Source of the DNA: Patescibacteria group bacterium
Lineage (GTDB): Bacteria > Patescibacteriota > Minisyncoccia > Phycocordibacterales > UBA918
Direction of reading: 5' to 3'
Length of the DNA: 64,000 bases
NCBI GenBank assembly: GCA_019752815.1
Contig: JAIELQ010000005.1
Location: 49,625 to 113,624, forward strand
Shown in pieces: positions 15,768-63,166 of the stretch. Position numbers and translations under genes: made by a program. The notes under the pieces were generated by a model. That model made no database searches. It was given only the letters and a program-made list of their open reading frames with translations, and was not told the DNA's origin. Numbering within the stretch: the first letter of the stretch is position 1; each line of letters opens with the position of its first letter.

Positions 15768-18164
15768 TTACAATGCCCACTTCGGTCGACGGTAGTAGGT
15801 AAAGGCAAGTAACACACTAATAAATATCAAGGGTATAAGTAATCGCTGGCGAAAAGTATTGGTTACTGGGGTGTCTTGTGTGCCATCGTCAGCTTGGGCG
15901 ATATTGGTGCCGAGTATAGTTGGTAGACTATCAATAATAGTTTCAGTGGTGGTAGCTACTCCCAGCACAGTCGGGAGTGTGTCGTCAGTCAGAAAGCTAG
16001 CATTTGATTGCATCAAGAGTGGGTAGGTGAGGGCCGTGGGTAGATTAGTTGCACGGTAGAGAATTGTACCGTGGGCCAAATTCTGTCTCGACGCTACGTT
16101 ATTTTGCAGTAGGGTAGTATCGAGGGTGTAGGTGCCTGGATTAGCACCCCCCATAAAGGTAATCTCGTATAAAACGGTTATTTCCTCATAGGGCAGGAGA
16201 GTGCCAATGTCCCAGACCTCGGTTTGAATTATATTCCCAAGCTCGTCTCGTAAATTATCGGTGAGGCTTATGTTCATAAAGGTCTTGCTCGTTGGATTAT
16301 TGATGATGATGTGCTGCGGGGAGACTTCTCCTTGGTGTGTAATACTGCTGGTCGATAGACGATTAATTGTGATATTACTCAGATTAGTCATAGCGGGTGT
16401 ATCGGATAGATTTTTTAACACCGTATTTTTCTTGCTGGTATTAGAACCGCCACTACTAACTTTTTTACTGGCGTAAATTGTTCCGGTATCAGAATTGTCT
16501 TGTGTATTATTATCGTTTTCGTGTGAGGTTACATTAACGGTGTTAGTAATTTCTGTACCAGGGACCGTGTTACGAACTTTTGCTTGATATGATATTTGGC
16601 TTGATTCGCCTACTGCGAGTGGCTCGGGTAAGTTGAAGGAAATCGTTCCGTCACTTAGGGTTGTGTAGGTATGTGAGGAATCAATGATCGAGAGGTGTGC
16701 GGTATCAAAATCGTCACGAACGATGACGTTGTTGGCGATGGCGTCACCTTGATTGATGATGGTGTAGGTATAGGTAACTACGCTATCGTTTTTTATGGTT
16801 GCAGGAGTAGAAATCTCCTCACCAATCCAAAGGTCAGGTCGGCCAAAGGCGAGGTTGCCGGTAAAGTCGCCAAAGATATTAATTATAGCGAGTGTCCAAT
16901 TTCTTCCGATGACGGTGGCGTTAGCAACAGTGACCACATTGGCGCCAATCAATGCGTCACCGGTGGTAATCAGGGACGAATCTGCTCCGGTAATGGTATT
17001 TTGTCCACTGTTGGCAGTGAGGGTTGCATTGGTAGTGATAGCGGCGGTGTTGGTGGCGCTGACTGTACGTTGTGCCGCAGCAGTACTGCCCTGATTTGAG
17101 TTGGTGAGGTAGTATGAACCATCATCTCCTTTGATTACTTCTATCTCGGGAATTAATCCTTGAATTTCACCCAGCCAATCACCATGAACTTTGAGCATAA
17201 TAACCATTGAGTCACCACCAAGGAGGGCGCTGTTAATAGAATTAATAGTTTGAGTGACACTTTTGGCATTGCCGGTTAGGGTGGTAGTAACGTTACCGTC
17301 TACGGTGTTATTGCCAGTATTAGAATTAGACTCAATGTTGCTTGTTACTAAAGCTTGATTTTGAATATCGATATTGGTCGGAACGGTTGAGACCGCTGAG
17401 GTAAAAAAGTTATTTAGTCCAGGAAAAATAATATCACCCGTAACATCACGAAAGGCATTTACTGTGACTACCAAATAGTGTGAATCAATAAAGGTACTGT
17501 TAGCGATTGTGACGAGATTCAGGCCCGTAAATGCGTCGCCCGTTTCAATCAGAGCATTACCTAGATTTGTTTCCAGTTCGTTGTTCCCGGTAATCGATTC
17601 AAGGAAAATTGTATTATCGATTGTAGCGCCGTTTATTACGCCAACACTGACTGCGTCAGAAGATAAGCAGGTATGTAAATCGCAGGGGACGCTTGTGCTA
17701 CTTTGTGGACGGAAATCAAGCGCGTTAGTTTGGTTGTTGTGTAGCTGAGCAAAAATAATTTCACCTTGGGAATTAACAGAAGTGGTATTCACGACATTTA
17801 AAATATTAGCGGCAGCGAGCGCATCACCAGTAACGATACTGGTGGTAGTCGCTATGATTGCTGTTTCCGTGGTGGTTGCCTGTGCATCGCTTGTAGTAGC
17901 GGGGGTAGATTCGAGATCGCTCGTGGTAGCCACGCTTTCGCTACGCTCTTCGCTTGTCGTAGAAATCGGTTTTGTTACCTGAGGAGGGGTGTTAGTTACT
18001 ATATCCACAATGACGCTTGTTTCTGCTGGGTTTGTTTCTGTTTGTGACTGACCGGCTTCTGTATCTTCATCCGCATATACGGAGGTTGAAAATAGGGGAG
18101 TGCTGAGGAGAAGCATCAGGGCAGCAAATATTCCAGCGGCAAATTTTTTGATGTATGTTTTCAT
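15768..18164 (-). CDS. Large surface/adhesin-like protein (798 aa) with signal peptide and C-terminal TM anchor
   Basis: N-terminal signal peptide MKTYIKKFAAGIFAALMLLLSTPLFSTSVYA. Thr/Asn/Ser-rich beta-repeat body. C-terminal LLIPLIFISVLLAFTYYRRPKWAL is a hydrophobic anchor with a basic tail. Confidence 0.7.
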   Translation of the reverse strand: MKTYIKKFAAGIFAALMLLLSTPLFSTSVYADEDTEAGQSQTETNPAETSVIVDIVTNTPPQVTKPISTTSEERSESVATTSDLESTPATTSDAQATTTETAIIATTTSIVTGDALAAANILNVVNTTSVNSQGEIIFAQLHNNQTNALDFRPQSSTSVPCDLHTCLSSDAVSVGVINGATIDNTIFLESITGNNELETNLGNALIETGDAFTGLNLVTIANSTFIDSHYLVVTVNAFRDVTGDIIFPGLNNFFTSAVSTVPTNIDIQNQALVTSNIESNSNTGNNTVDGNVTTTLTGNAKSVTQTINSINSALLGGDSMVIMLKVHGDWLGEIQGLIPEIEVIKGDDGSYYLTNSNQGSTAAAQRTVSATNTAAITTNATLTANSGQNTITGADSSLITTGDALIGANVVTVANATVIGRNWTLAIINIFGDFTGNLAFGRPDLWIGEEISTPATIKNDSVVTYTYTIINQGDAIANNVIVRDDFDTAHLSIIDSSHTYTTLSDGTISFNLPEPLAVGESSQISYQAKVRNTVPGTEITNTVNVTSHENDNNTQDNSDTGTIYASKKVSSGGSNTSKKNTVLKNLSDTPAMTNLSNITINRLSTSSITHQGEVSPQHIIINNPTSKTFMNISLTDNLRDELGNIIQTEVWDIGTLLPYEEITVLYEITFMGGANPGTYTLDTTLLQNNVASRQNLAHGTILYRATNLPTALTYPLLMQSNASFLTDDTLPTVLGVATTTETIIDSLPTILGTNIAQADDGTQDTPVTNTFRQRLLIPLIFISVLLAFTYYRRPKWAL

Positions 18165-18263
18165 GAAAATATTTTGTAATGATAAATCCTGTCCTTAGAT
18201 ACCCTGACGAAGTAGCTTCGCAATGGTATCTAAAAACAGGGGGTCCTGTTTTTAGAGTAAACC

Positions 18264-19364
18264 TTAGTTACGGACGATTCGGGTCATGGTACGACCTGAG
18301 GTAGTCACAATAGTAGCCAGCGAGTCAGAGACACCGGTATTAACCGCGCCGCCATTTCCACCGTTACCACCAGTACCGCCGGTGCCAGCAGTTGAATCAT
18401 TTGATTCAGATCCACTACCACTTGTGTTACCTCCGTCACCACCACGCTCTGCCCGTGCACCACGAGAGGTATTGTCTCCGGTTTGGGCATTCACCGCGAC
18501 GGCGTTACCGACATTAGCTGTATTGGTGTTTGCTGCAGCAATGTCATCTTCGTCATCAACATGAGTGCGAGTGTATTCAATTGATAGGTTGTCGTATTCG
18601 ACAAGACTAATGTCTGAAGTAAGTGTTACATCATCAGAAATGGCGTTATTTGACGATGAATTTGATTCAGATGAATTGTCGTACTCACTCGCTGATTCTG
18701 ATTCAGTGTTGTTTGACTCTGATTCAGAGTTTGATGAACTAGATTCTGAATTAGAGCTTGAACTTTCGTCAGTGTCATCTGATGAATCACTATCAGATGA
18801 AGAGTCAGACGCTTCATTTTCAGAAGCTGATTCTGAGTTAGCTTCCTCACTTTCAGATTCACTTCCTGTTACAGAAGTACTTTCTGATTCTTGTTGTGAA
18901 GAGTTTTCATCGTAGTCTTGAACATATGATGTAGATTCATCATAGGTCATGCCAGTTTCAGATTGGTATGACAATGTTTCATCATAATTTTCGTCGTTTC
19001 CGTTATTGTCTTCGATAACGGTATCGGTAGTGTTAACATCATTGCGAATGTCAGCAGTGGCGATAGCATCACCGGTCGTGATGCTGCCACCATTTCCGCC
19101 ATTTCCACCATCGCCACCGTCGCCGGCAGTACTACTGCCGTCATTAGAACCGCTGACGTTACCACCTTCACCACCACGATTCGCCCGAGCGCCTCGAGAA
19201 GTGTTTCCACCAGTGTTGGCTCCAACTGTTACTTGGTTAGTAACCGTTGCTTCGTTGTCGTTAGTAACGGTTATTGCTCCAGCCAAAGCTGTTTGTCCAC
19301 CGACAGCCACCATACTTAATATGGCGAGTGTCGCAGTAGATTTTGCTAAAATGTTTGTTCTCAT
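18264..19364 (-). CDS. Secreted polyanionic low-complexity protein with an internal duplicated Gly/Asn domain
   Basis: Signal peptide. Two similar Gly/Asn-rich segments (..GGNTSRGARA.RGG.GGN.SGS..STAG.GG.GGNGGNGG..) flank an extremely Ser/Asp/Glu-rich stretch (SESESEEANSESASENEASDSSSDSDSSDDTDESSSSNSESSSS...). Confidence 0.6.
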   Translation of the reverse strand: MRTNILAKSTATLAILSMVAVGGQTALAGAITVTNDNEATVTNQVTVGANTGGNTSRGARANRGGEGGNVSGSNDGSSTAGDGGDGGNGGNGGSITTGDAIATADIRNDVNTTDTVIEDNNGNDENYDETLSYQSETGMTYDESTSYVQDYDENSSQQESESTSVTGSESESEEANSESASENEASDSSSDSDSSDDTDESSSSNSESSSSNSESESNNTESESASEYDNSSESNSSSNNAISDDVTLTSDISLVEYDNLSIEYTRTHVDDEDDIAAANTNTANVGNAVAVNAQTGDNTSRGARAERGGDGGNTSGSGSESNDSTAGTGGTGGNGGNGGAVNTGVSDSLATIVTTSGRTMTRIVRN

Positions 19365-20296: not shown

Positions 20297-20398
20297 TTTC
20301 GAATCCTGACGCAAGGCACGTGTAGTGCCTTGCTCCCGGGGAGCGTGTGATCATAGGTACAGTAAAAGCCACAAGCTGATGCTTGTGGCTTTTACTGT
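20297..20398. repeat. Palindromic structure next to the tRNA-Asn 3' end
   Basis: Perfect 18-bp inverted repeat ACAGTAAAAGCCACAAGC-TGAT-GCTTGTGGCTTTTACTGT at 20361..20398. At 20297..20346 there is an inverted copy of the tRNA 3' motif (CGCTCCCCGGGAG...CAGGATTCGAA on the minus strand), split by the hairpin GCAAGGCAC-TACAC-GTGCCTTGC. Confidence 0.6.
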
Positions 20399-20410
20399 AT
20401 GATTACTACG

Positions 20411-20743
20411 CTCCCCGGGCAGGATTCGAACCTGCGACCAATCGATTACACGAATCTCCTAATTTCTTAGAGGGGTGGACTATATCATCACCGGTTGTAT
20501 TTCTACACGACGGTGCAAGGCGCTTCGAATGCATTTTTGCATCCTACTCCCGTAAGGGATAGTCTCTGAACCTTCAATTGGATTTCTCCAAAAGCTTGGC
20601 TGCTGATTGCCCACAGCACACGAATGTCTGTTTCGGGGTTCCAGCAATTCACCTTGTTTGCAATAACGATTTCTCGATAAGGCTGCTATTTTGAACTTTG
20701 TCCACTGTTACAGTCGACTGCTCTACCGCTGAGCTACCGAGGA
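20411..20743 (-). tRNA. tRNA-Asn(GUU) interrupted by a group I intron. Exon 1 is 20710..20743, the intron is 20449..20709, exon 2 is 20411..20448.
   Basis: Exons on the minus strand read UCCUCGG-UA-GCUC-AGCGGUA-GAGC-A-GUCGA-CUGU / UAA-UCGAU-UGGUC-GCAGG-UUCGAAU-CCUGC-CCGGGGA-G. The acceptor stem, D arm and discriminator G73 match bacterial tRNA-Asn (compare E. coli UCCUCUGUAGUUCAGUCGGUAGAAC...). The intervening 261 nt ends in G and carries the group I R element GUUCAGAGACUA, the S element AUAUAGUCC, and P/Q-like elements AAUUGCUGGAA and AAUCAGCAGCC. Confidence 0.8.
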
Positions 20744-20854
20744 GCGTAATAATCATGCGCACTTAATTCCCTAATGGGAAATAAGTGCCTGTATTGTACA
20801 GAAAAATAGGATTTATTCAACCGTGGGGGCGGGGAGGGGGTAAATGGGGTGAGG

Positions 20855-21322
20855 TTAATCGTTTTGGTCGTTTAACGTAACCGTTTTCATGACGGTGATA
20901 AAACCTTTGACATCAAGTGGTCCAGCACCTCTGAGCCATTTCCGGCTCTCTTTGCGGAGGATGGGTTCGATAGTGGTGACAAGTTCTGAACCGGCAGACG
21001 TGATAGTGGCCAAGCGTTCACGTTTGTCTGTTTTGCCGGCAGTGATGCTAACCAGGTTTCGATCCTGCAGGCGTTTGATGCGCAGGGTTATGAAGGGGGC
21101 CTCGACACCCAATTCTTCTGATAAAACACTCAGTTTCATTCCGGTACGTTTATCGTCATGCAAGAGCCCAATAATAGCCCAGTCGACACTGGTGAGGTCG
21201 TAGGGGGCGAGTACGGCATCGGTGTGGGATTTGAGTACCCGGTGGGTGCGAGCCACCAAAACGCCAATTTGGTACGTGGTAAGTGTGAGGTGTTTGACAA
21301 TTAACCGTTTGAGTAATGACAT
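20855..21322 (-). CDS. MarR-family transcriptional regulator
   Basis: 155 aa. Winged-HTH segment SVLSEELGVEAPFITLRIKRLQDRNLVSITAGKTDKRERL is typical of MarR. Confidence 0.8.
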   Translation of the reverse strand: MSLLKRLIVKHLTLTTYQIGVLVARTHRVLKSHTDAVLAPYDLTSVDWAIIGLLHDDKRTGMKLSVLSEELGVEAPFITLRIKRLQDRNLVSITAGKTDKRERLATITSAGSELVTTIEPILRKESRKWLRGAGPLDVKGFITVMKTVTLNDQND

Positions 21323-21494
21323 GTGACTAGCTTATGTGGTTATACAAAATTAGTAAAGAGGGATTGTAATGAAAGGAGTGAAGATACGGCATAAAGGCAG
21401 TTGCGCAAAATGTGGCCTTTGCGTACAATACTATAAATACTTAATCAAGTTAAGTATATTACCAACTGACCAAATTAAAAAACTTAAACTTCGT

Positions 21495-22148
21495 ATGAAC
21501 AACTATGTAATTGCAGCCATTATTGGGGTCATTATCATTGCGGGTATTGTATACGCATCACAAAATGATGAAGTGTCTATGCAAGAAAAAGTACAGATGG
21601 ACCAAGAGGCTAAAATGAAAATGGAAGCCGAAGCTCGGGAAAAAGCCGCTATGGAAGCTAATGCAAACATGGATGCAAAAACCAACACTGAAGCAGGGGT
21701 AATGGTTGGAGGAGCAATGATGTTACCAACACTCGACATTGTTGATAATGCAGCCAAAGCCAGTAATGTAACCACTGTAGTCACTGCAGTAAAAGCGGCT
21801 GGTTTGCTTGACACCCTTAAAGGTCCTGGACCATTCACTGTTTTTGCACCAACAAACGATGCGTTTGCTAAGTTACCAGCAGGAACAGTTGATTCGTTAC
21901 TAAAGGCCGATATGAAAGCTGACCTCACAAGTATCTTGACTTATCACGTGGTCGCGGGACGCTACACCGCTGCGGATCTAAAAGATGGTATGACACTAAA
22001 GACGGTAAATGGAGCTACACTTAAAGTAAGTAATGTTAACGGAGTCGTTAAAATTAATGGATCTTCAACTGTGCAAACAGCTGATGTGATTTCTAGTAAC
22101 GGAGTAACTCATGTTGTTGATACGGTTTTGATGCCACCAAAGATGTAA
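21495..22148 (+). CDS. Membrane-anchored fasciclin (FAS1) domain protein
   Basis: ORF 21369..22148. The likely start is the Met at 21495, followed by a TM helix (YVIAAIIGVIIIAGIVYA). FAS1 motifs FTVFAPTNDAFAKLP and HVVAGRY..TNGVTHVVDTVLMP. Confidence 0.85.
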   Translation: MNNYVIAAIIGVIIIAGIVYASQNDEVSMQEKVQMDQEAKMKMEAEAREKAAMEANANMDAKTNTEAGVMVGGAMMLPTLDIVDNAAKASNVTTVVTAVKAAGLLDTLKGPGPFTVFAPTNDAFAKLPAGTVDSLLKADMKADLTSILTYHVVAGRYTAADLKDGMTLKTVNGATLKVSNVNGVVKINGSSTVQTADVISSNGVTHVVDTVLMPPKM

Positions 22149-28225: not shown

Positions 28226-29725
28226 TTAAAACTCATCGAGATATTTAATGTCTGCACCGAGACTGGCTAATCGTGCAACGAGGTTTTCATAACCGCGGTT
28301 GATACTGTAGATATTACGCAGGACCGAGCGGCCGGATGCGCCCAACATCGCAATCAAGAGAATCGTAGCGGGACGCAAGGCGGGCGGGCAGATGAGCTCA
28401 GCTGATTTTAGCTGTGTTGGTCCGGTGATGTAGATACGGTGAGGGTCGGCCAAAACGGTGTCAGCACCGAGTTTTTCGAGCTCGGTAAAATAAATGGCGC
28501 GTTTTTCATACATCCAATCGTGAATGAGGGTTTGACCAGCTGCCTGGGTCGCAATCACCGCGTAGAAGGGGAGGTTGTCGGCATTGAGTCCAGGGTAGGG
28601 CCTGGAGTGTACTTTTTCTGGTGAAGCGTGTAGTTTGCTTGGTTTGATTTTTAAATCTACCAGTTTGGTGTATTCATTGACTGCTAGGTATGGTTTTGAT
28701 GTGCTGTATTGCAGACCCATTTTTTCGAGTACCAACAGTTCAAGCTCAAGAAACTCAATTGGAGCTCGGGTAATAGTGATGGCAGAATTAGTAACAATTG
28801 CAGCTGCAATAAAAAACATACTGTCGGTTGGATCCTCGGCCAGGGTGTATTCAATATCGACATTGATAGTACGAACACCGGTAACGGTTAGTGTGGTGGT
28901 GCCGATACCTTCAATTTGCACCCCAAATAATTTTAAGAAGACACAGATTTCCTGCACCATGTAGTTGGCACTCGCATATTTGATGACCGTTGTGCCTTCG
29001 TTAAGTGCTGCTGCGAACAGGACATTTTCAGTCACGGTGTCCCCGGATTCGTAAAGAATAATTTCAGACGGTTTTTTAAGTACGGTTGCGACTCTGAATT
29101 CTTTTTCTGTGGTTTCTATACTGACACCATAGTGTTCAAGGGCGTAAAAATGAGGGCGAACGGTGCGACTGCCGAGTTTGCAACCGCCTGATTGCGGAAG
29201 TGCAAAACTCGGCATAGTGTGAATCAGTGCACCAATAAACATTACAATACTGCGGGTTTTGCGGGCAGCATCAACATCGATTTTTTTGAGATCAAATTTT
29301 TTGGGTGGGGTGATCGTAATGGTACTGCCGCTCCAAACAATATGCATGCCGATACTCTGTAGCACCTCGATAATGCGGTGCACTTCCTCGATACGAGGCA
29401 TTCTGTGGAGGGTGGTGACGCCGCGGTTTAATAGTGACGCACATAGAAGTCCCACTGCACCATTTTTACTGGTATTAGTTTCAATGGTGCCAGATAGCTT
29501 CTTGTTCCCATTGATTTCGACATTAACGGTCCCAGGTGAGAGGGTGATGAGATTTTTACCGAGTGCGGTCCCGATTTTTTTCAGCATCTCGGCACTGATG
29601 TTTTGGGTGCCTGATTCAAGACGAGCAATAGCGCTTTGTGTAGTTTTAAGTTTTTTAGCGAGTTGTGTTTGGGTGAGTCCGACTGACTCTCTCAAATCAG
29701 CAATTCTGTTTCCAATATTTTCCAT
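28226..29725 (-). CDS. murA: UDP-N-acetylglucosamine 1-carboxyvinyltransferase fused to an N-terminal XRE-type HTH domain
   Basis: Residues 1-60, IADLRESVGLTQTQLAKKLKTTQSAIARLESGTQNISAEMLKKIGTALG, form an HTH_XRE. The remaining roughly 430 aa has the MurA/EPSP fold (SKNGAVGLLCASLL and related motifs). 499 aa in total. Confidence 0.85.
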   Translation of the reverse strand: MENIGNRIADLRESVGLTQTQLAKKLKTTQSAIARLESGTQNISAEMLKKIGTALGKNLITLSPGTVNVEINGNKKLSGTIETNTSKNGAVGLLCASLLNRGVTTLHRMPRIEEVHRIIEVLQSIGMHIVWSGSTITITPPKKFDLKKIDVDAARKTRSIVMFIGALIHTMPSFALPQSGGCKLGSRTVRPHFYALEHYGVSIETTEKEFRVATVLKKPSEIILYESGDTVTENVLFAAALNEGTTVIKYASANYMVQEICVFLKLFGVQIEGIGTTTLTVTGVRTINVDIEYTLAEDPTDSMFFIAAAIVTNSAITITRAPIEFLELELLVLEKMGLQYSTSKPYLAVNEYTKLVDLKIKPSKLHASPEKVHSRPYPGLNADNLPFYAVIATQAAGQTLIHDWMYEKRAIYFTELEKLGADTVLADPHRIYITGPTQLKSAELICPPALRPATILLIAMLGASGRSVLRNIYSINRGYENLVARLASLGADIKYLDEF

Positions 29726-33156: not shown

Positions 33157-34740
33157 ATGTCGGAATTGGCAGCTACACTTCATCAATTTGCAACCGTTGA
33201 TAGTAATCAGTTTGTGATCAATGAGCGTAAGGGTAGTGTATTGCGCGCAGTCGAAAAAAGTTTTTCATTCAGAGAGTTTAATCCAAAAACGAGCGTCCCG
33301 CTGTCACTTACAGAATTATCAACCATTATGCACTTTACCGGCAATGGTATTACATCCTCGCCACAATATAAGCAGTCTGGAGCGATGACTGCAGCAGCGC
33401 CTACTGATACACCTACAGAAGGTACACTTTTGGGAGTCAATAAACACCGTAACACCGAAAAGGAGATTTATATGACTGAGCGTGATCGCATGCGACATTT
33501 TTACGTGATTGGTCAAACGGGTACTGGTAAATCAGTATTGCTTAAAAATGTCATCATTCAAGATATTTTAAATGGTGACGGTGTTTGTATGATAGACCCG
33601 CATGGAACCGACATCGTAGACGTACTAGGCTCAATTCCACCAGAGCGTGAAAAGGATGTAATTTACTTTGATCCATCGGATCTAGAGAATCCAATTGGGC
33701 TTAACATGCTGGAGTTTGATGAACAAAAACCAGAGCAGAAAACATTTGTGGTTAATGAATTATTTTCAATTTTCCAAAAATTGTATGGAGGAAATCCAGA
33801 ATCAATGGGGCCAATGTTTGAACAGTATTTTCGTAACGCAACGTTGCTCGTGATGGAAGATCCAGATTCAGGGAATACCCTAATGGATATTTCACGGGTA
33901 ATGGCTGACGCCAAGTATCGGCGGATGAAATTAGAGAAAGCTAAAAATCCGGTCGTGGTACAGTTTTGGCGTGAGATTGCGACTAAAGCCGGTGGTGAAG
34001 CTTCACTCGAAAACATAGTGCCCTATATCGTATCAAAATTCGACGTGTTTACCGCCAACGACTACATGCGTCCAATTATTGGTCAGCAAAAATCGGCTTT
34101 CAACTTTAGACAGATTATGGATGAGAAGAAAATCTTACTTGTGAATCTTTCTAAAGGCCGTTTGGGTGAAATTAATGCCAATCTTATTGGTATGATTATT
34201 GTAGGTAAAATCTTGATGGCAGCATTGTCTCGAGTAGATAATGAAGCGATGGACTTTCCACCGTTCTATTTGCATATTGATGAGTTCCAAAACGTATCAA
34301 CTCCATCAATTGCTTCAATTTTGTCAGAAGCTCGAAAGTATAAATTGAGTCTCACTATGGCTCATCAATTTATTGCGCAACTTGATCAAGATATTAAAGA
34401 TGCGGTATTTGGTAACGTGGGCTCAGTCGCAGCATTTCGAATTGGATCTGAAGATGCTCATTTTTTGGAGAGTCAGTTTGCTCCTGTATTTAGTGCAAAC
34501 GACCTAATGAATGTGCCAAATTGGAACGCTATGATACGGATGTTAGCTAATGGTACTCCAACAAAACCATTTAGTATTGGTACCATGCCACCTTTTAAAG
34601 CGGATATTACCAGAGTGGCAGAACTAAAAGCTATGTCCGCGAAAAGGTACGGACGTCCACGCGCCGAAGTTGAGGCTGAAATCGCTGCCCGCTATGCCAA
34701 GGAGCCTGTTTCGCTCCCCCCGCTAAGTGCTATGATATAG
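33157..34740 (+). CDS. FtsK/HerA/TraG(VirD4)-superfamily P-loop ATPase (soluble, 527 aa)
   Basis: Walker A HFYVIGQTGTGKSVLLKN. Walker B FYLHIDEFQN. Downstream ARKYKLSLTMAHQFIAQLD resembles the RKYG..L.TQ motif of HerA/TraG/VirB4-type ATPases. No TM helices. Confidence 0.65.
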   Translation: MSELAATLHQFATVDSNQFVINERKGSVLRAVEKSFSFREFNPKTSVPLSLTELSTIMHFTGNGITSSPQYKQSGAMTAAAPTDTPTEGTLLGVNKHRNTEKEIYMTERDRMRHFYVIGQTGTGKSVLLKNVIIQDILNGDGVCMIDPHGTDIVDVLGSIPPEREKDVIYFDPSDLENPIGLNMLEFDEQKPEQKTFVVNELFSIFQKLYGGNPESMGPMFEQYFRNATLLVMEDPDSGNTLMDISRVMADAKYRRMKLEKAKNPVVVQFWREIATKAGGEASLENIVPYIVSKFDVFTANDYMRPIIGQQKSAFNFRQIMDEKKILLVNLSKGRLGEINANLIGMIIVGKILMAALSRVDNEAMDFPPFYLHIDEFQNVSTPSIASILSEARKYKLSLTMAHQFIAQLDQDIKDAVFGNVGSVAAFRIGSEDAHFLESQFAPVFSANDLMNVPNWNAMIRMLANGTPTKPFSIGTMPPFKADITRVAELKAMSAKRYGRPRAEVEAEIAARYAKEPVSLPPLSAMI

Positions 34741-34745
34741 GTACT

Positions 34746-37502
34746 ATGAAAGAGGGCTATCCATCAAATAAATTGGATGTGGCGTATCGAGGCGACTTCG
34801 AAGACCCTGCGCGGACTGCTTTTTCTAATGCACAGTTGCCGCCCCAAAGAGTGACACTCGAAGATTTTGCAAAATATCCGTTTGGTCCTTCTGAGATAAC
34901 TTCAAAAAGTGATTACGTAAAACATGTGCTCACCTGGTTTTCAAAAGCACTCATCGATGCTGGATATAAACCCAATGAAGTTGATAATCTCATTCGTAAA
35001 TCATTAGATACTATTGATTTTAATAGACCGGAAGCGATGTACGTAGCTGATATCAATCGTATTATTCAAAATTTTTATAAGGCAGCTCCTGGTAAAAATA
35101 GTTCGACTGAGGCAACTGAGGTTCCAGCTCCAGTTGCTGCTGGGCAAGCTGAGATTATTGAGACTTCTGTTCAGTCAACACCAACACCAATAACGCCTGT
35201 TGTACCGCAACAGAGTGAAACGCACATTTCTCCTTTTGCACAAAAAGTTGAACCGTTTCGGTCGGCAGATGATGGTGTGCCCAAAGAGGTCACAATTAAT
35301 ACTAGAACTCCAGATCTGAGTTCGGTTTCGAGTGTAGAAATACAACAAGAAGAAGAAACTCTGCCACTCGCTACAGAATTTGATGATCGAGCGCAAGAAT
35401 ATGCCGAATACGGTAATCGTTCAATAAAAATAACACCTTCTTTCCCTGAAGCTACTAACGTGACAGCGGTTAAAAAAGATAATTTCGAAAATCCTCCTCA
35501 GGTGACTCGTAATGAACAGTTAGCTTCGACACCGCTCATTCTAACCCCTGAAATGCGGGTTGTTGATCCGAATGAACCAATTGTGCTTGAGACAGTGAGT
35601 GCTGATGACGAGGTCGCGTTGGAGAAGCGGAATGTTGGTTTAGAATATCAAAGCAAGCTTGATGCGCTCAACACACAAGCGTTTAATCATGAAGCGTACA
35701 TAGAATTTGTGTTTGATGTGCACACGGGTCTTAGACATGAATATGATGGAGTAATCAATTCAGCGCGAAATAACCTAAAGCGATTTGATGGCTTTTATGC
35801 ACCGTCCACAATTGAAAAACAAGCACTGCAATTATTATCAAGTCTCCAAGGTCAGTACGCCAAGATGCAGAATGTACAATCTGATTACGGTCTTATTCGA
35901 GGCGCACTGACTGAGAAATTAAGTGAGAGTCCTACCGACGCAATCGAAGCCGAAATTAAGTCTTTGTCACAGAGTTATCTTGATGCTACACAAAAACTTT
36001 TTGCAAACATTAGCAAGCTTGAAGGTTTGATAGAAGAAGTGAAACAAGAAGAAAAACCGTCAGTAGCAGAAGTGTATCGGGCACAATTTGAAAAACTGCA
36101 GACTGAAGGTAATCAGGTGTTGCGGTCACTATCAGCCAGTCACCCCTTGTATGAGCGGCTAAAGACAGCTGTAGAAGTTGATTTACAAAAAATTATTGCA
36201 CAAGCGTCTGTTGAAAATGGGGGAGATAAAGCGGTACTTGAAAACTCCTCGAACTTTATAGCGAGAAGGGATCAAATTAAAGAGCTGATTTCATTTATCA
36301 AAAAAGAACAAGAGTATCAAGATTTCTTTGCGCGTGCTCGGGCGCGGGTGCAAAAACTTGAATCACAATTTGAAATAATTCCGACGGGAGATAAAGGAAT
36401 GCAGGTAAAAACAATCCTTGCAGAAAATATTGTAAAAATTAAACAGGCTCTTAGTGGAACTGATTCACAAACCGCCACCGTAGGCGTGCTTGAGAACTTG
36501 AATCAACAAAAAAGCATTATTGAGATGTTACTTCGTGATTCAGAAGAGTCAATTTCGTCATTACCGCAGAGTGAGACTGTCGTACAACAAGAAGTGGGGT
36601 CAAGGGTGTTAACTGATGCTGAGTTGATTGCCGTTGTTGAAAAAACTCCGCTTGTTGAAAATATGGCAGAAGTGCAGGATCGCTATCAGATGCAGCGGGC
36701 AGAGATTGAAAAATATCTAACGTACCAACGTGAGCAACAGAGCAGGGAACGTTTCTCTGGACCCGTGTATGAAAAAGCAAAACGACTAGCAGGCATGCTA
36801 CATTTGGGTACGATTGGTAAAGCGGCTGCGGTACTTTTGACGCTCGCTGGACCAGCTGGTGTCTCGAGTCAAAAATCAGACCTGAATATTCTTGGTGATC
36901 TCAACATGTCAGCAGGTGTGTTAGCGCAACCGGATTTTGATTACGCCGCTATTTCAGAATTTCTCCGGACGGCTGAGGGATTTAGGGTGATTTCTGAAAC
37001 AGTAGCACCGGCAGTGTCAACTGTTGCTCCAGAGTTACCAAAAGTACCAGTGTCAGTAGAGACTGTGCCCGGTGTGATTTTGCCAGACATGGTCAGTCGT
37101 TCAAATGACGAAACCCAGGATATGCCATCAGAAATCTTTAGTGATTTAGCTGATGAGGTACCAAAAGACAAGGGTATTGAATTTGCAAGTCCAAATAAAT
37201 CTAATGTTCCAGAAGCTTTACGTAAGCCATACAAAATAAATTTTGGTGATAAATTCTGGGATATTAATGAGGGAAAAACGCTCGCTGGTAAATTGCCGGT
37301 CATGTCACAAATAAATCCTTCCTTAAAACAAGCACTCATAGACCGTATGCGCGATAAAATTAATAATGACAGAGCACTCAGAGACGCTATTGGCGGGTTT
37401 GGTAAAAATGCTGATCAGCTCCGTACCGGAGAATTAATGAATCTCGACAAACTTAATGAACTGGGGGTGAGTGTAGCCGCTGACTACAGTTATCTAAAAT
37501 AA
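34746..37502 (+). CDS. Giant hypothetical coiled-coil protein (918 aa)
   Basis: Long predicted helical or coiled-coil regions with one internal hydrophobic segment (AAAVLLTLAGPAGV). No enzymatic motif recognised. Start is 6 nt after the ATPase stop. Confidence 0.55.
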   Translation: MKEGYPSNKLDVAYRGDFEDPARTAFSNAQLPPQRVTLEDFAKYPFGPSEITSKSDYVKHVLTWFSKALIDAGYKPNEVDNLIRKSLDTIDFNRPEAMYVADINRIIQNFYKAAPGKNSSTEATEVPAPVAAGQAEIIETSVQSTPTPITPVVPQQSETHISPFAQKVEPFRSADDGVPKEVTINTRTPDLSSVSSVEIQQEEETLPLATEFDDRAQEYAEYGNRSIKITPSFPEATNVTAVKKDNFENPPQVTRNEQLASTPLILTPEMRVVDPNEPIVLETVSADDEVALEKRNVGLEYQSKLDALNTQAFNHEAYIEFVFDVHTGLRHEYDGVINSARNNLKRFDGFYAPSTIEKQALQLLSSLQGQYAKMQNVQSDYGLIRGALTEKLSESPTDAIEAEIKSLSQSYLDATQKLFANISKLEGLIEEVKQEEKPSVAEVYRAQFEKLQTEGNQVLRSLSASHPLYERLKTAVEVDLQKIIAQASVENGGDKAVLENSSNFIARRDQIKELISFIKKEQEYQDFFARARARVQKLESQFEIIPTGDKGMQVKTILAENIVKIKQALSGTDSQTATVGVLENLNQQKSIIEMLLRDSEESISSLPQSETVVQQEVGSRVLTDAELIAVVEKTPLVENMAEVQDRYQMQRAEIEKYLTYQREQQSRERFSGPVYEKAKRLAGMLHLGTIGKAAAVLLTLAGPAGVSSQKSDLNILGDLNMSAGVLAQPDFDYAAISEFLRTAEGFRVISETVAPAVSTVAPELPKVPVSVETVPGVILPDMVSRSNDETQDMPSEIFSDLADEVPKDKGIEFASPNKSNVPEALRKPYKINFGDKFWDINEGKTLAGKLPVMSQINPSLKQALIDRMRDKINNDRALRDAIGGFGKNADQLRTGELMNLDKLNELGVSVAADYSYLK

Positions 37503-37507
37503 ACACT

Positions 37508-37801
37508 ATGATCACTTCACAACACATTCAAGCGGCGCAAACTAAATTAGGTCTCGATACGCTATCACCGTCAGACGCGGAAGCAATTTTAAATAGATTT
37601 GGCTACGATATTGTGGTGGCCACGATGACTGAGTTCATGACGTCTCTGGGGGAATGGGAGCAGAATTCATTTGAAAGTTGGATTGAAGCACATCAAGCTG
37701 AACCAGACATGCTCGAACAATTGATGTTGCTCTATCCACAATTTGGAAAAATCCTCACGGAAGAAATTTTAAAATTAAAAAACGCACACGAAGTAGTGTA
37801 G
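37508..37801 (+). CDS. Small helical hypothetical protein (97 aa)
   Basis: Starts 6 nt after the giant ORF. Acidic helical protein. Confidence 0.5.
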   Translation: MITSQHIQAAQTKLGLDTLSPSDAEAILNRFGYDIVVATMTEFMTSLGEWEQNSFESWIEAHQAEPDMLEQLMLLYPQFGKILTEEILKLKNAHEVV

Positions 37802-37867
37802 TTTTGTAAAGTAATACACAGAAGCGTAGGTGCATATACTTTTGTCTCGTAACGACAGTGGTATGAT

Positions 37868-39631
37868 ATGCGTATGACAGCTGATGCTCGTTCTTTGGGG
37901 GTAACCGTACCTGAACAGTTTGACTTCGATTCTCAAGCGGGAATTTTGTTTGTGTTACGTGCTATTAGAGCAGCAGATTTAAGTGGTGCCGATAAAAACA
38001 GTCTTAAAGATTTAGTCTTTCTCTACAATACAGGTGGAAAAGATGAATCGGTAAAGAAAAAATTAGCTGATACTCTGAGTGTACATGGAGTTACTCCGGC
38101 TACAGTTTTACTCGAGGTGCCCAAGCAGGCTGCAGTTCCGAGAGAAGAAGCGAAACCATTAACTACTCCTGGTTTTATGGGTGGACGATTGACACCAGTA
38201 TTTCATCCACCAGTCGTAGCAACTCCTGCCGCCCCAATACCGGTTACAGCACCAGCACCTGTGTCAGTTGTACAAGTTCCTCAAGTTGATGTTCCGGTGA
38301 TACAAATTAAACCCGAAACCCAACCAAACGTTGTAGTACCTAAAGTAGAAAAAGTTACTCCTGTTGCACCAGTAGCTCCGCCAGTTCGACCAATAGTACC
38401 AGTGCCACAGCCGGTAACTCCAGTGCCAAACGTGACGCCTGAAGCAGTCAATATCGAGGTTAAAAAAGATATCCCAACACCTGTTCAGACTCCGGTTGAG
38501 GTGGCGCCTGCCTACGTCGCGAGTCGTATGGAGCGTATCCGAGTTATTAAATCTGATGTTAACGCTCGAGTAGGTAATCCGGTGAATCTTGTAGATGTCG
38601 ACAATGCGCTTGGTCGCGAATATATGAGCGCGCTGCTGGAAGCAATGAAGCTGCTCAGTAGTGCCAGTGAACAAGAGTCAACTATTGCGATGAACCGATT
38701 AGAGACAGTATACGCCCAGGTGCTGTTACTGCTTGATGCCCAGCAAAAAACCGAATCCGCTGTTGTGTCACCCGTTACGCCCCCGGCACCAGTGATGCCA
38801 GTTGTTCCAGTTACTCCCGTGCCACCAGTACTGCCGGTGGTGCCAGTTGTACCTGTAGCCCAGCCAGCAGCTCAAACACCAATGCCTGAGGTCGTAGCAC
38901 CGGTTTCAATTCCTGTGGTGTCGAGTCCGGTTGTGCCGTCTCCGGTGGTAGTACCACAGCCAGTTTTACCATCGATTGTCGAGCCCGCACTTGATGTGAT
39001 TGTTCGCAGTAAAGTATCTGATAAACCGACTACACCACCGGTAGTGAGCAATTGGGAAACGGCTGCTCATGCTCCAGTCGATATGGTTTCAAGTGTGGGG
39101 GCTACAGTCACACCGCCTGATGTAGTAATGGTAAACCGTATGAGTACTCCACCAGCGGAACCATTGCGTCCGGTAGTGTCACCAGTAGCACAGGTGTACC
39201 AGCCGGAAGTTACTCCGTCTGTAGGTGAAGTACAGCCACTGCGAGCCATCACCGAATTACCAACTGCTGACGAGGTGAGTGCGGTAGAAGCTATGAGTAG
39301 TAATCCTCTGTACACCAAAGATATTGATGCCGGTTTGGATCAATTGCTCAGTGAGTGGGCAATCTTCAAAAAAAGTGGTTTGTTTGGAACGGGACCGAAA
39401 GGGCGTGAACATCCGCTCTATATCAAAATATCACCGATGCAAGTTCCACTTATCCTCTCTGGTCGTTTTGAAGGTTCGACCCAGGAAATTAAACAAAGTA
39501 TTACTGATTACATGAATGGTTGGCGGTATGAACAGGGAATTGTGTACGAACCAAACGAAACGTTTGATCAGTATCTCAGACGCGTTATCAGGCATATCTT
39601 AGATTTGCAGAAAACAAAACGTCGTTCATAA
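37868..39631 (+). CDS. Pro/Val-rich repetitive protein with a conserved C-terminal globular domain (587 aa)
   Basis: Central PV-rich repeats (PVTPVPNVTPEAV, PVMPVVPVTPVPPVLPVVPVVPVAQP). C-terminal domain ..LYTKDIDAGLDQLLSEWAIFKKSGLFGTGPKGREHPLYIKI.. Confidence 0.55.
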   Translation: MRMTADARSLGVTVPEQFDFDSQAGILFVLRAIRAADLSGADKNSLKDLVFLYNTGGKDESVKKKLADTLSVHGVTPATVLLEVPKQAAVPREEAKPLTTPGFMGGRLTPVFHPPVVATPAAPIPVTAPAPVSVVQVPQVDVPVIQIKPETQPNVVVPKVEKVTPVAPVAPPVRPIVPVPQPVTPVPNVTPEAVNIEVKKDIPTPVQTPVEVAPAYVASRMERIRVIKSDVNARVGNPVNLVDVDNALGREYMSALLEAMKLLSSASEQESTIAMNRLETVYAQVLLLLDAQQKTESAVVSPVTPPAPVMPVVPVTPVPPVLPVVPVVPVAQPAAQTPMPEVVAPVSIPVVSSPVVPSPVVVPQPVLPSIVEPALDVIVRSKVSDKPTTPPVVSNWETAAHAPVDMVSSVGATVTPPDVVMVNRMSTPPAEPLRPVVSPVAQVYQPEVTPSVGEVQPLRAITELPTADEVSAVEAMSSNPLYTKDIDAGLDQLLSEWAIFKKSGLFGTGPKGREHPLYIKISPMQVPLILSGRFEGSTQEIKQSITDYMNGWRYEQGIVYEPNETFDQYLRRVIRHILDLQKTKRRS

Positions 39632-62871: not shown

Positions 62872-62943
62872 CTCTCTTTTGTGACCTCACGGGGAATCGA
62901 ACCCCGATTGCAGGAATGAGAATCCTGCGTCCTAGCCGTTAGA
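62872..62943 (-). tRNA. tRNA-Glu(CUC)
   Basis: Minus strand reads GGCCUCA-UC-GUCU-AACGGCUAG-GAC-G-CAGGA-UUCUCAU-UCCUG-CAAU-CGGGG-UUCGAUU-CCCCG-UGAGGUC-A. D arm and acceptor are like bacterial tRNA-Glu. Anticodon CUC. Confidence 0.8.
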
Positions 62944-63166
62944 CGATGAGGCCGTCTGTTGTTTCTTCAATTGGGTGTCAGTATAGTAGCAAACTTATAT
63001 ATAAATTACCAAGTAAAAAGTCAGTATTTATATCTTAGTAGTAAGTGCCAGTCGTTATTGGTGTAGGGAAGTTACAATGTTGATTCATTGACAAAAATGA
63101 CAATAAATGCATAATTCCTCTTGGACTTTAGACGTTACTCCTCACTCAAACAAACGAGGAATATAG

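Follow-up and report, generated by a model that had tools for sequence, protein, structure and literature searches.

The window analysed here, a 64-kb stretch of contig JAIELQ010000005.1 (64,000 nucleotides), carries on its minus strand a tRNA-Asn(GUU) gene whose two exons (20743–20710 and 20448–20411) flank a 261-nt group I intron (20709–20449) (Table 1). The 5' exon reads UCCUCGG-UA-GCUC-AGCGGUA-GAGC-A-GUCGA-CUGU and comprises the 5' strand of the acceptor, the D arm, the 5' strand of the anticodon stem and the loop bases C32, U33, G34 and U35; the 3' exon reads UAA-UCGAU-UGGUC-GCAGG-UUCGAAU-CCUGC-CCGGGGA-G and supplies U36, A37 and A38, the anticodon stem, a 5-nt variable loop, the T arm, the acceptor and G73. 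A first-pass annotation had described a 5' half ending in CUGU, a 3' half running from UAA to G73, and between them a 261-nt sequence with group I R and S elements and a terminal G; all of these lie where it had placed them. Its insertion point between anticodon positions 35 and 36 is likewise correct: the 7-nt D loop lacks position 17, so that exon base 34 is standard position 35. The intron holds GGTTCAGAGACTATC and GATGATATAGTCCAC (also written GGUUCAGAGACUAUC and GAUGAUAUAGUCCAC), and its final base is G. CCA is not encoded after G73, the next bases being CGU.

Both of the database and gene-finder checks suggested for this locus identified the element. The Rfam group I intron family RF00028 matches at 20703–20456 (−) with 81.6 bits against a gathering score of 50 (E = 3.4e-19; model positions 1–253 of 253), one of only two Rfam matches in the window, the other being a tRNA-Glu at 62882–62953. 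ARAGORN run on the window with default settings missed the split tRNA-Asn gene; with introns allowed, it returned tRNA-Asn(gtt) of 73 nt with a 261-nt intron and the boundaries of the first-pass annotation. The open reading frames (ORFs) that overlap the intron are all ≤59 amino acids (aa) and spurious, and no homing-endonuclease ORF is present.

Table 1. Features of the split tRNA-Asn gene and its flanks, in the direction of transcription (A1, alignment of 42 related introns; MFE, minimum free energy)
Feature	Positions	Strand	Details and evidence
Sigma-70-like promoter candidate, TTGAAT-16 nt-TACAAT	20793..20820	−	Consensus scan, 9/12 matches
tRNA-Asn 5' exon, positions 1–35	20710..20743	−	34 nt; sequence, ARAGORN with introns allowed
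Group I intron	20449..20709	−	261 nt; last base G 20449 = omega-G; RF00028, ARAGORN, MFE fold
Internal guide sequence GCAG, P1 3' strand	20683..20686	−	Pairs with exon C32–U35 (20713–20710); U35 opposite G 20686
P2 hairpin, UAUCGA / GAAA / UCGUUA	20664..20679	−	6/6 pairs compensatory, 96.4% paired
P3 5' strand, CAAGGUG	20650..20656	−	Partner 20522–20516; 4/7 pairs compensatory, 89% paired
P4-P5-P5a domain	20600..20647	−	P4 20647–20642 with 20605–20600; P5 20638–20636 with 20612–20610
P6/P6a	20571..20599	−	CC 20599–20598 with GG 20572–20571; inner hairpin UUGGA/GAAA/UCCAA; 91.7% paired; MFE fold
P7 5' strand, GACUA, in R element GGUUCAGAGACUA	20560..20564	−	Pairs with 20482–20478; invariant 42/42, 100% paired
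P7.1 hairpin, UCCC/UUAC/GGGA, between P7 5' and P3 3' strands	20548..20559	−	3/4 pairs compensatory; MFE fold
P7.2 hairpin, GGAUGCA/AAAA/UGCAUUC	20527..20544	−	7/7 pairs compensatory, 85.5% paired; MFE fold
P3 3' strand, CGCCUUG	20516..20522	−	A1 pairing count
P8/P8a hairpin, CACCG ... UGUA GAAA UACA ... CGGUG	20489..20515	−	4/5 outer pairs compensatory, 88.9% paired; MFE fold
P7 3' strand, UAGUC, in S element GAUGAUAUAGUCC	20478..20482	−	RF00028 and A1
P9 hairpin, UCUAA/GAAA/UUAGG	20458..20471	−	5/5 pairs compensatory, 83.1% paired
tRNA-Asn 3' exon, positions 36–73	20411..20448	−	38 nt; sequence, ARAGORN, joined exons 72/72 identical to L191/L234
Perfect 18-bp palindrome, ACAGUAAAAGCCACAAGC / AUCA / GCUUGUGGCUUUUACUGU	20359..20398	.	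Read from sequence

Structure and covariation of the intron

Related introns were sought in a genome scan of one genome per species with the pattern GATATAGTC-N30-60-GGTTCGARTCC, which returned at least 120 loci, mostly in Patescibacteria metagenome-assembled genomes (MAGs). Among the matches listed, to which the homolog counts below refer, at least 67 loci hold a split gene of the window's design (68 with the window). The comparative analysis used alignment A1, made with MAFFT from 42 endonuclease-free tRNA-Asn 35/36 introns and not fitted to any structure. The helices of the window copy were written out and projected onto it, with the P3/P7 pseudoknot in its own bracket type. Across A1, 89.9% of cells are in standard pairs, versus 34–45% when the 3' partners are slid by 1–3 columns; column shuffling leaves 69.6% paired, and none of 500 shuffles reaches the observed values. 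Compensatory changes on both sides occur in 36 of the 54 pairs of the structure, and the covariation score is 0.471 versus 0.04–0.12 in the slid controls. The structure was derived from one aligned sequence, which favours the unslid register in the percentage paired but cannot account for the compensatory changes.

The P3-P7 pseudoknot, whose absence the first-pass annotation had named as grounds for abandoning the group I assignment, can be formed together with the P4-P6 and P8 domains; P3 covaries, and P7 is 100% paired but invariant. In P4, five of six pairs show compensatory changes (94.4% paired), and P7.1 is 97.7% paired among the 32 sequences that possess it. The MFE fold of the intron alone (−72.3 kcal/mol, z = −2.55) contains P2, P3, P4, P5, P5a, P6a, P7.1, P7.2 and P8/P8a. 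Helices of the P7.1/P7.2 kind, lying between the P7 5' and P3 3' strands, mark IA-type introns, and the predicted architecture of the window intron is of this type.

Pairing of an internal guide with the CUGU exon end had also been anticipated, and the sequence GCAG provides it, with U35 opposite G in 42 of 42 aligned introns. CUGU and GCAG(C) are invariant in all 42, the latter sitting just upstream of P2, while the length of the P1 loop ranges from 5 to more than 60 nt. Among the 68 introns, GCAG falls within the first 140 nt in 60; the eight exceptions are all introns of more than 500 nt. The U-G wobble expected at the 5' splice site of a group I intron is thus present throughout A1, its support coming from conservation and position and not from covariation. 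The Rfam alignment is poor upstream of P3, with low posterior values and mismatches, and was not used to define P1 or P2. An alternative P1 hairpin, in which the anticodon stem would pair with the initial bases of the intron (GUCGACUGU/ACAGUGGAC), was rejected: it places the splice site in a 3-nt loop, has no U-G pair and is not conserved in A1.

The 23-nt P1 loop (20687–20709, −) contains a small hairpin, GGAC-AAA-GUUC. A GAAC...GUUC hairpin occupies the same place in three homologs (L023, L033 and L065), and long introns begin similarly (GAAC, GGAC) ahead of their ORF; this hairpin may be the remnant of, or a landing site for, an endonuclease insert.

Several features weigh against this structure or against a working ribozyme. 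P1 and P7 are invariant in A1 and hence offer no covariation to score, and P5 is poorly aligned and 50% paired, which gives it weak comparative support. P2 of the window copy has one U-U mismatch; P1 is just 4 bp long, with A31 opposite C past the guide, an arrangement that 6 of the 60 scored homologs share; and for P10 the window offers two possible pairs (UA/UA), with no conserved complement upstream of GCAG in A1. P10 is not a requirement in every group I intron. The short P1 with its adjoining mismatch, the P2 mismatch and the lack of a P10 could nonetheless be taken as signs of a decayed, non-splicing relic, the locus being a disrupted tRNA pseudogene and tRNA-Asn coming from a gene outside the window; the 64-kb window is the portion of the genome that was analysed. 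Against decay, no core helix is disrupted, the window copy keeps the invariant positions of R, S, the guide and omega-G, the RF00028 score is high, and the A31/C configuration is common to six homologs. The exons, moreover, are 100% identical to intact intronless genes, described below, and so have not decayed, and a genome that carries both intron-containing and intronless copies for one anticodon is rare (PMC13011429). We regard a pseudogene as very unlikely.

Splice register and intronless counterparts

In an in silico splice scan, all 5' ends from 20716 to 20705 were combined with all 3' starts from 20456 to 20443. A 7-nt loop together with a U before the 5' splice site and a terminal G in the intron results at only two junctions: 20710/20448, which yields tRNA-Asn(GUU), and 20712/20450, which yields tRNA-Thr(UGU). 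The doubt that the first-pass annotation had kept about a tRNA-Thr(UGU) was thus well founded in that the second register is real. In that register the intron would span 20711–20451 at 33/34, the 5' exon ending at U33 (20712) and the 3' exon starting with UGUAA at 20450. It is chemically possible in 50 of the 68 split genes, and it is the register that ARAGORN picks for most homologs, as tFind often does (PMC13011429, Table 1).

The homologs, the guide and the acceptor nevertheless favour asparagine. The bases preceding the terminal G vary: the last three intron bases are GUG in 50 of the 68 genes and AUG, UUG, ACG, UCG or GAG in the others, so that the Thr register is impossible in 18, while the Asn register always works; the scan demanded CUGU...G|UAA, and the Asn register and omega-G are therefore present in all homologs by construction. 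The guide pairs U35 with G in every aligned sequence, whereas a Thr splice after U33 would set that base against A. In the scanned loci, tRNA-Thr(UGU) genes that have no interruption read GCC...GGC and then U73, giving G1-C72/U73, whereas the window gene has U1-A72 and G73, as do the split genes at large (U1-A72 in 67 of 68, G73 in all 68).

Intronless tRNA-Asn genes provide a further test, the comparison of the spliced product with such genes being the one used for boundaries in PMC13011429. None was found among the at least 120 genome loci listed, and a metagenome scan was therefore used, which collected genes that lack an interruption, share the D and T arms and have the loop CUGUUAA; at least 115 of them were parsed. 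Among the matches listed, U1-A72 is present in 106 of 115 and G73 in all 115. Two loci, L191 (~2060–2135) and L234 (contigs JACCDR011637016.1 and JACCDV011216743.1), carry a tRNA-Asn identical at 72 of 72 positions to the joined exons of the window; the other top intronless matches listed are 95–99% identical to them. That some intronless genes match the Asn product exactly argues against the Thr register, as does the sequencing of an in vitro spliced homolog at the 35/36 junction (PMC13011429). Four lines of evidence—guide, homologs, acceptor and intronless genes—agree in placing the predicted splice site at 35/36 (Asn) and not at 33/34 (Thr), and the question is resolved in favour of Asn; that the gene is a tRNA-Thr(UGU) we consider highly improbable.

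One comparison counts against an asparagine identity. In BLAST searches of the spliced tRNA against annotated E. coli genomes, its body (positions 4–67) is closest to tRNA-Lys at 89–91%, and among the eight best matches listed tRNA-Lys(UUU) is the only feature annotated beneath, tRNA-Asn not being among them. Because E. coli tRNA-Lys is the best body match, body similarity was dropped as an argument for identity. The Asn assignment, made from sequence, instead rests on the anticodon, on U1-A72/G73 and on the intronless counterparts. The tRNA-Lys match also cautions against isotype calls from BLAST of a tRNA body.

L191, L234 and the window are collinear, their gene order and orientations running alike from fmt (~70% nucleotide identity) through a glutaredoxin-like gene (grx) to the tRNA. 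Between the last two, the window has MarR-like and fasciclin-domain-like genes (20855–22148) that L191 and L234 lack. Since an identical intronless tRNA stands in a collinear neighbourhood, related lineages differ in the presence of the intron at this locus, and, given the 100% identity, the endonuclease-free intron may have been gained or lost recently. It is conceivable, if rather doubtful, that such a recent gain or loss took place, for example by an HNH enzyme acting in trans or by reverse splicing, or that the intron is kept as a guanosine-dependent gate on tRNA-Asn supply. Nakagawa et al. speculate along the latter line that splicing gates tRNA-Asn supply in a genome with few regulators (PMC13011429).

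Relation to described introns and proposed function

The first-pass annotation listed tRNA-Leu(UAA), fMet, Ile and Arg as the known bacterial hosts and regarded tRNA-Asn and the 35/36 site as unusual. Its list is the classical one, to which tRNA-Asn 35/36 has since been added, and the claim of novelty is out of date: the site was mapped computationally in 2020 (10.1101/2020.01.27.920355) and spliced in vitro in 2025–26 (PMC13011429). Williams (bioRxiv 2020, 10.1101/2020.01.27.920355) used the tFind pipeline to raise the number of intron-bearing tRNA types from four classical ones to 21; according to the account in Nakagawa et al. (PMC13011429), these classes include "Asn.4Ug", which tFind sometimes miscalls "Thr.2Ug". 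Nakagawa et al. (bioRxiv July 2025, 10.1101/2025.07.03.662931; mSystems 2026, PMC13011429) analysed 95 complete Patescibacteria genomes and reported 35/36 group I introns in 15 tRNA-Asn(GUU) and three tRNA-Asp(GUC) genes, noting that the boundary is often misplaced by ARAGORN and tFind, which set it two bases off, at Thr(UGU) 33/34. In their study, the tRNA-Asn intron of GCA_016700035.1 was excised precisely at 35/36, as established by in vitro splicing and sequencing of reverse transcription PCR products, and a terminal G-to-C mutation of the precursor blocked exon ligation. They classed 25 of 28 introns at 35/36 as IA, 19 of the 28 coming from Patescibacteria, placed almost all tRNA introns of Patescibacteria in IA and none in IC, and found HNH genes in four long tRNA-Asn introns.

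The window precursor is 70.4% identical over 294 aligned columns to the validated GCA_016700035.1 precursor (Table S3 of PMC13011429), and the splice sites, the GCAGCC guide, P3, P4 and the R and S elements occupy corresponding positions in the two. It shares with the Patescibacteria tRNA-Asn 35/36 class the host phylum, the tRNA, the site, U35 and omega-G, the GCAGC guide, the helices between P7 and P3' that place it in the IA subgroup of that paper, the lack of a homing endonuclease (as in most members) and the two-base Asn/Thr annotation ambiguity. It differs from the validated member in details only: in its P1 loop (23 nt versus 5 nt), in having P7.1 and P7.2 as separate hairpins where the other aligns as one longer hairpin, and in its longer P8. 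The window locus also comes from a drinking-water/activated-carbon metagenome lineage, whereas PMC13011429 surveyed complete genomes.

The HNH-carrying tRNA-Asn introns have the same site, guide and core as the window intron, which has a 23-nt P1 loop and no ORF. The classical tRNA introns, namely those of tRNA-Leu(UAA) at 34/35 in cyanobacteria and plastids, tRNA-fMet at 33/34, and tRNA-Arg(CCU) and tRNA-Ile(CAU) at 36/37 in Azoarcus and Agrobacterium (positions per PMC13011429), are likewise small self-splicing group I ribozymes of the anticodon loop with a P1 built from loop bases, a U-G pair at the 5' splice site, omega-G and mostly no ORF; they differ in belonging to subgroup IC3 without P7.1/P7.2 and in their tRNAs, positions and phyla. 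Within the tRNA-Asn 35/36 class, already described and validated by experiment, the element in the window is an ordinary one.

We propose, with high confidence, that a Patescibacteria bacterium has at this locus a functional tRNA-Asn(GUU) gene that contains an intron and is spliced by its group I ribozyme at 35/36. The analysis establishes its sequence elements, its covariation-supported structure and its splice register, and shows that the predicted product has identical counterparts among intronless genes. Transcription of the minus strand would give a precursor of ~333 nt, in which exon bases C32-U33-G34-U35 would pair with the guide GCAG to form P1, with U35 in a U-G wobble. The P7 pocket would bind an exogenous guanosine that attacks after U35; the terminal G (20449) would then replace this guanosine in the pocket, and the freed 3'-OH of U35 would attack before U36, joining the exons into the anticodon loop CUGUUAA and releasing the intron. 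As CCA is not encoded, it would be added enzymatically after splicing. Precise in vitro self-splicing is a property of the homolog; for the window copy we infer catalysis, the transcription signals and aminoacylation by the Asn system.

Candidate signals flank the gene. The putative promoter lies ~50 nt upstream of tRNA position 1 and is a pattern match only, two such sites having been found against 1.0 expected. The palindrome begins 13 nt past G73, between an A tract and a U tract; a consensus terminator scan did not call it, because the tract has just four U, and it is a possible bidirectional intrinsic terminator.

Variation among the related introns was also apparent. Of the 67 homologs listed, 19 (L012, L039 and 17 more) have long introns of 511–630 nt, in which the P1 loop holds an ORF of ~100–135 aa, placed after the 5' splice site and before the GCAGC guide. 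These ORFs have a CxxC...CANCHREVH motif and match Pfam HNH weakly, with 19–20 bits, below the cut-off of 21.4, which is in line with the HNH genes of PMC13011429. Seven of the 42 endonuclease-free introns (L011, L017, L040, L047, L088, L090 and L100) have a compact core: the R-to-S distance is 27–43 nt versus 73 in the window, the P3-P4 region reads GGGAUAxCGGUGAA, and GAGACUAGAUACC leads directly into P3' with no P7.1/P7.2. By blastn they are nearer to introns in tRNA-Asp, Tyr, Ser and His of other Patescibacteria loci than to the window type; two core types therefore occupy 35/36 of tRNA-Asn. Split tRNA-Asn(GUU) 35/36 genes were also found in MAGs that carry the record labels Omnitrophota (L013, L103), Elusimicrobia (L082, L084) and Planctomycetales (L038), which lie outside the phyla listed for 35/36 in PMC13011429; several "Gammaproteobacteria" labels on third-party annotation (TPA) bins look unreliable.

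Host, neighbouring genes and significance

The window genes are ordinary chromosomal ones, including atpA, atpD, priA, murA, two PBP2-type genes, lysS, fmt and def. The best named matches of AtpD are from Candidatus Kaiserbacteria, Paceibacterota and Parcubacteria (90–92% identity), on which basis the host is assigned to the Patescibacteria, as a Parcubacteria/Paceibacteria-like bacterium; the loci with related introns are, among the matches listed, mostly Patescibacteria MAGs. AtpD has 99% matches on the 65.9-kb contig AADWTP_10001091 (JGI metagenome 3300002461) and on an activated-carbon metagenome contig, and the host probably comes from drinking-water treatment. As the window derives from a metagenome assembly, the split gene could in principle be an assembly chimera, or consist of two tRNA-like halves that flank an unrelated ribozyme by chance. 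We find this scarcely credible: at least 67 independent genomes show the same arrangement, another sample independently yielded a near-identical contig (atpD region only), and the two halves, once joined, form a perfect cloverleaf that real genes match exactly.

Among the neighbouring genes, the MurA ORF (28226–29725, −; 499 aa) carries at its N terminus an XRE-type helix-turn-helix (Pfam HTH_3, 52.5 bits, residues 8–59) that is fused in frame to the MurA body (residues 72–485), domains not usually combined in MurA. Immediately downstream of the tRNA region, 15768–19364 (−) encodes two large low-complexity proteins that are probably surface proteins: one of 798 aa is rich in Thr, Ser and Asn, with an N-terminal signal-like and a C-terminal hydrophobic segment, and one of 366 aa has a long acidic middle rich in Ser, Asp, Glu and Asn between Gly-rich repeats. 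Finally, 33157–39631 (+) holds a 527-aa ORF that has weak matches to TraD/VirD4-type coupling proteins over a short stretch, followed by ORFs of 918 and 587 aa with no NCBIfam match; this region may be a secretion or DNA-uptake module.

The locus is a further example of a pattern already made known in the literature: across this phylum, very small genomes retain self-splicing introns in essential RNA genes. Its residual value lies in annotation; the presence/absence contrast with identical intronless alleles in collinear relatives also deserves mention. Default tRNA finders miss the gene, and such a genome would seem to be without tRNA-Asn, or the gene would be miscalled tRNA-Thr(UGU); a missed or miscalled tRNA-Asn distorts both completeness estimates and the inferred decoding capacity of Patescibacteria.

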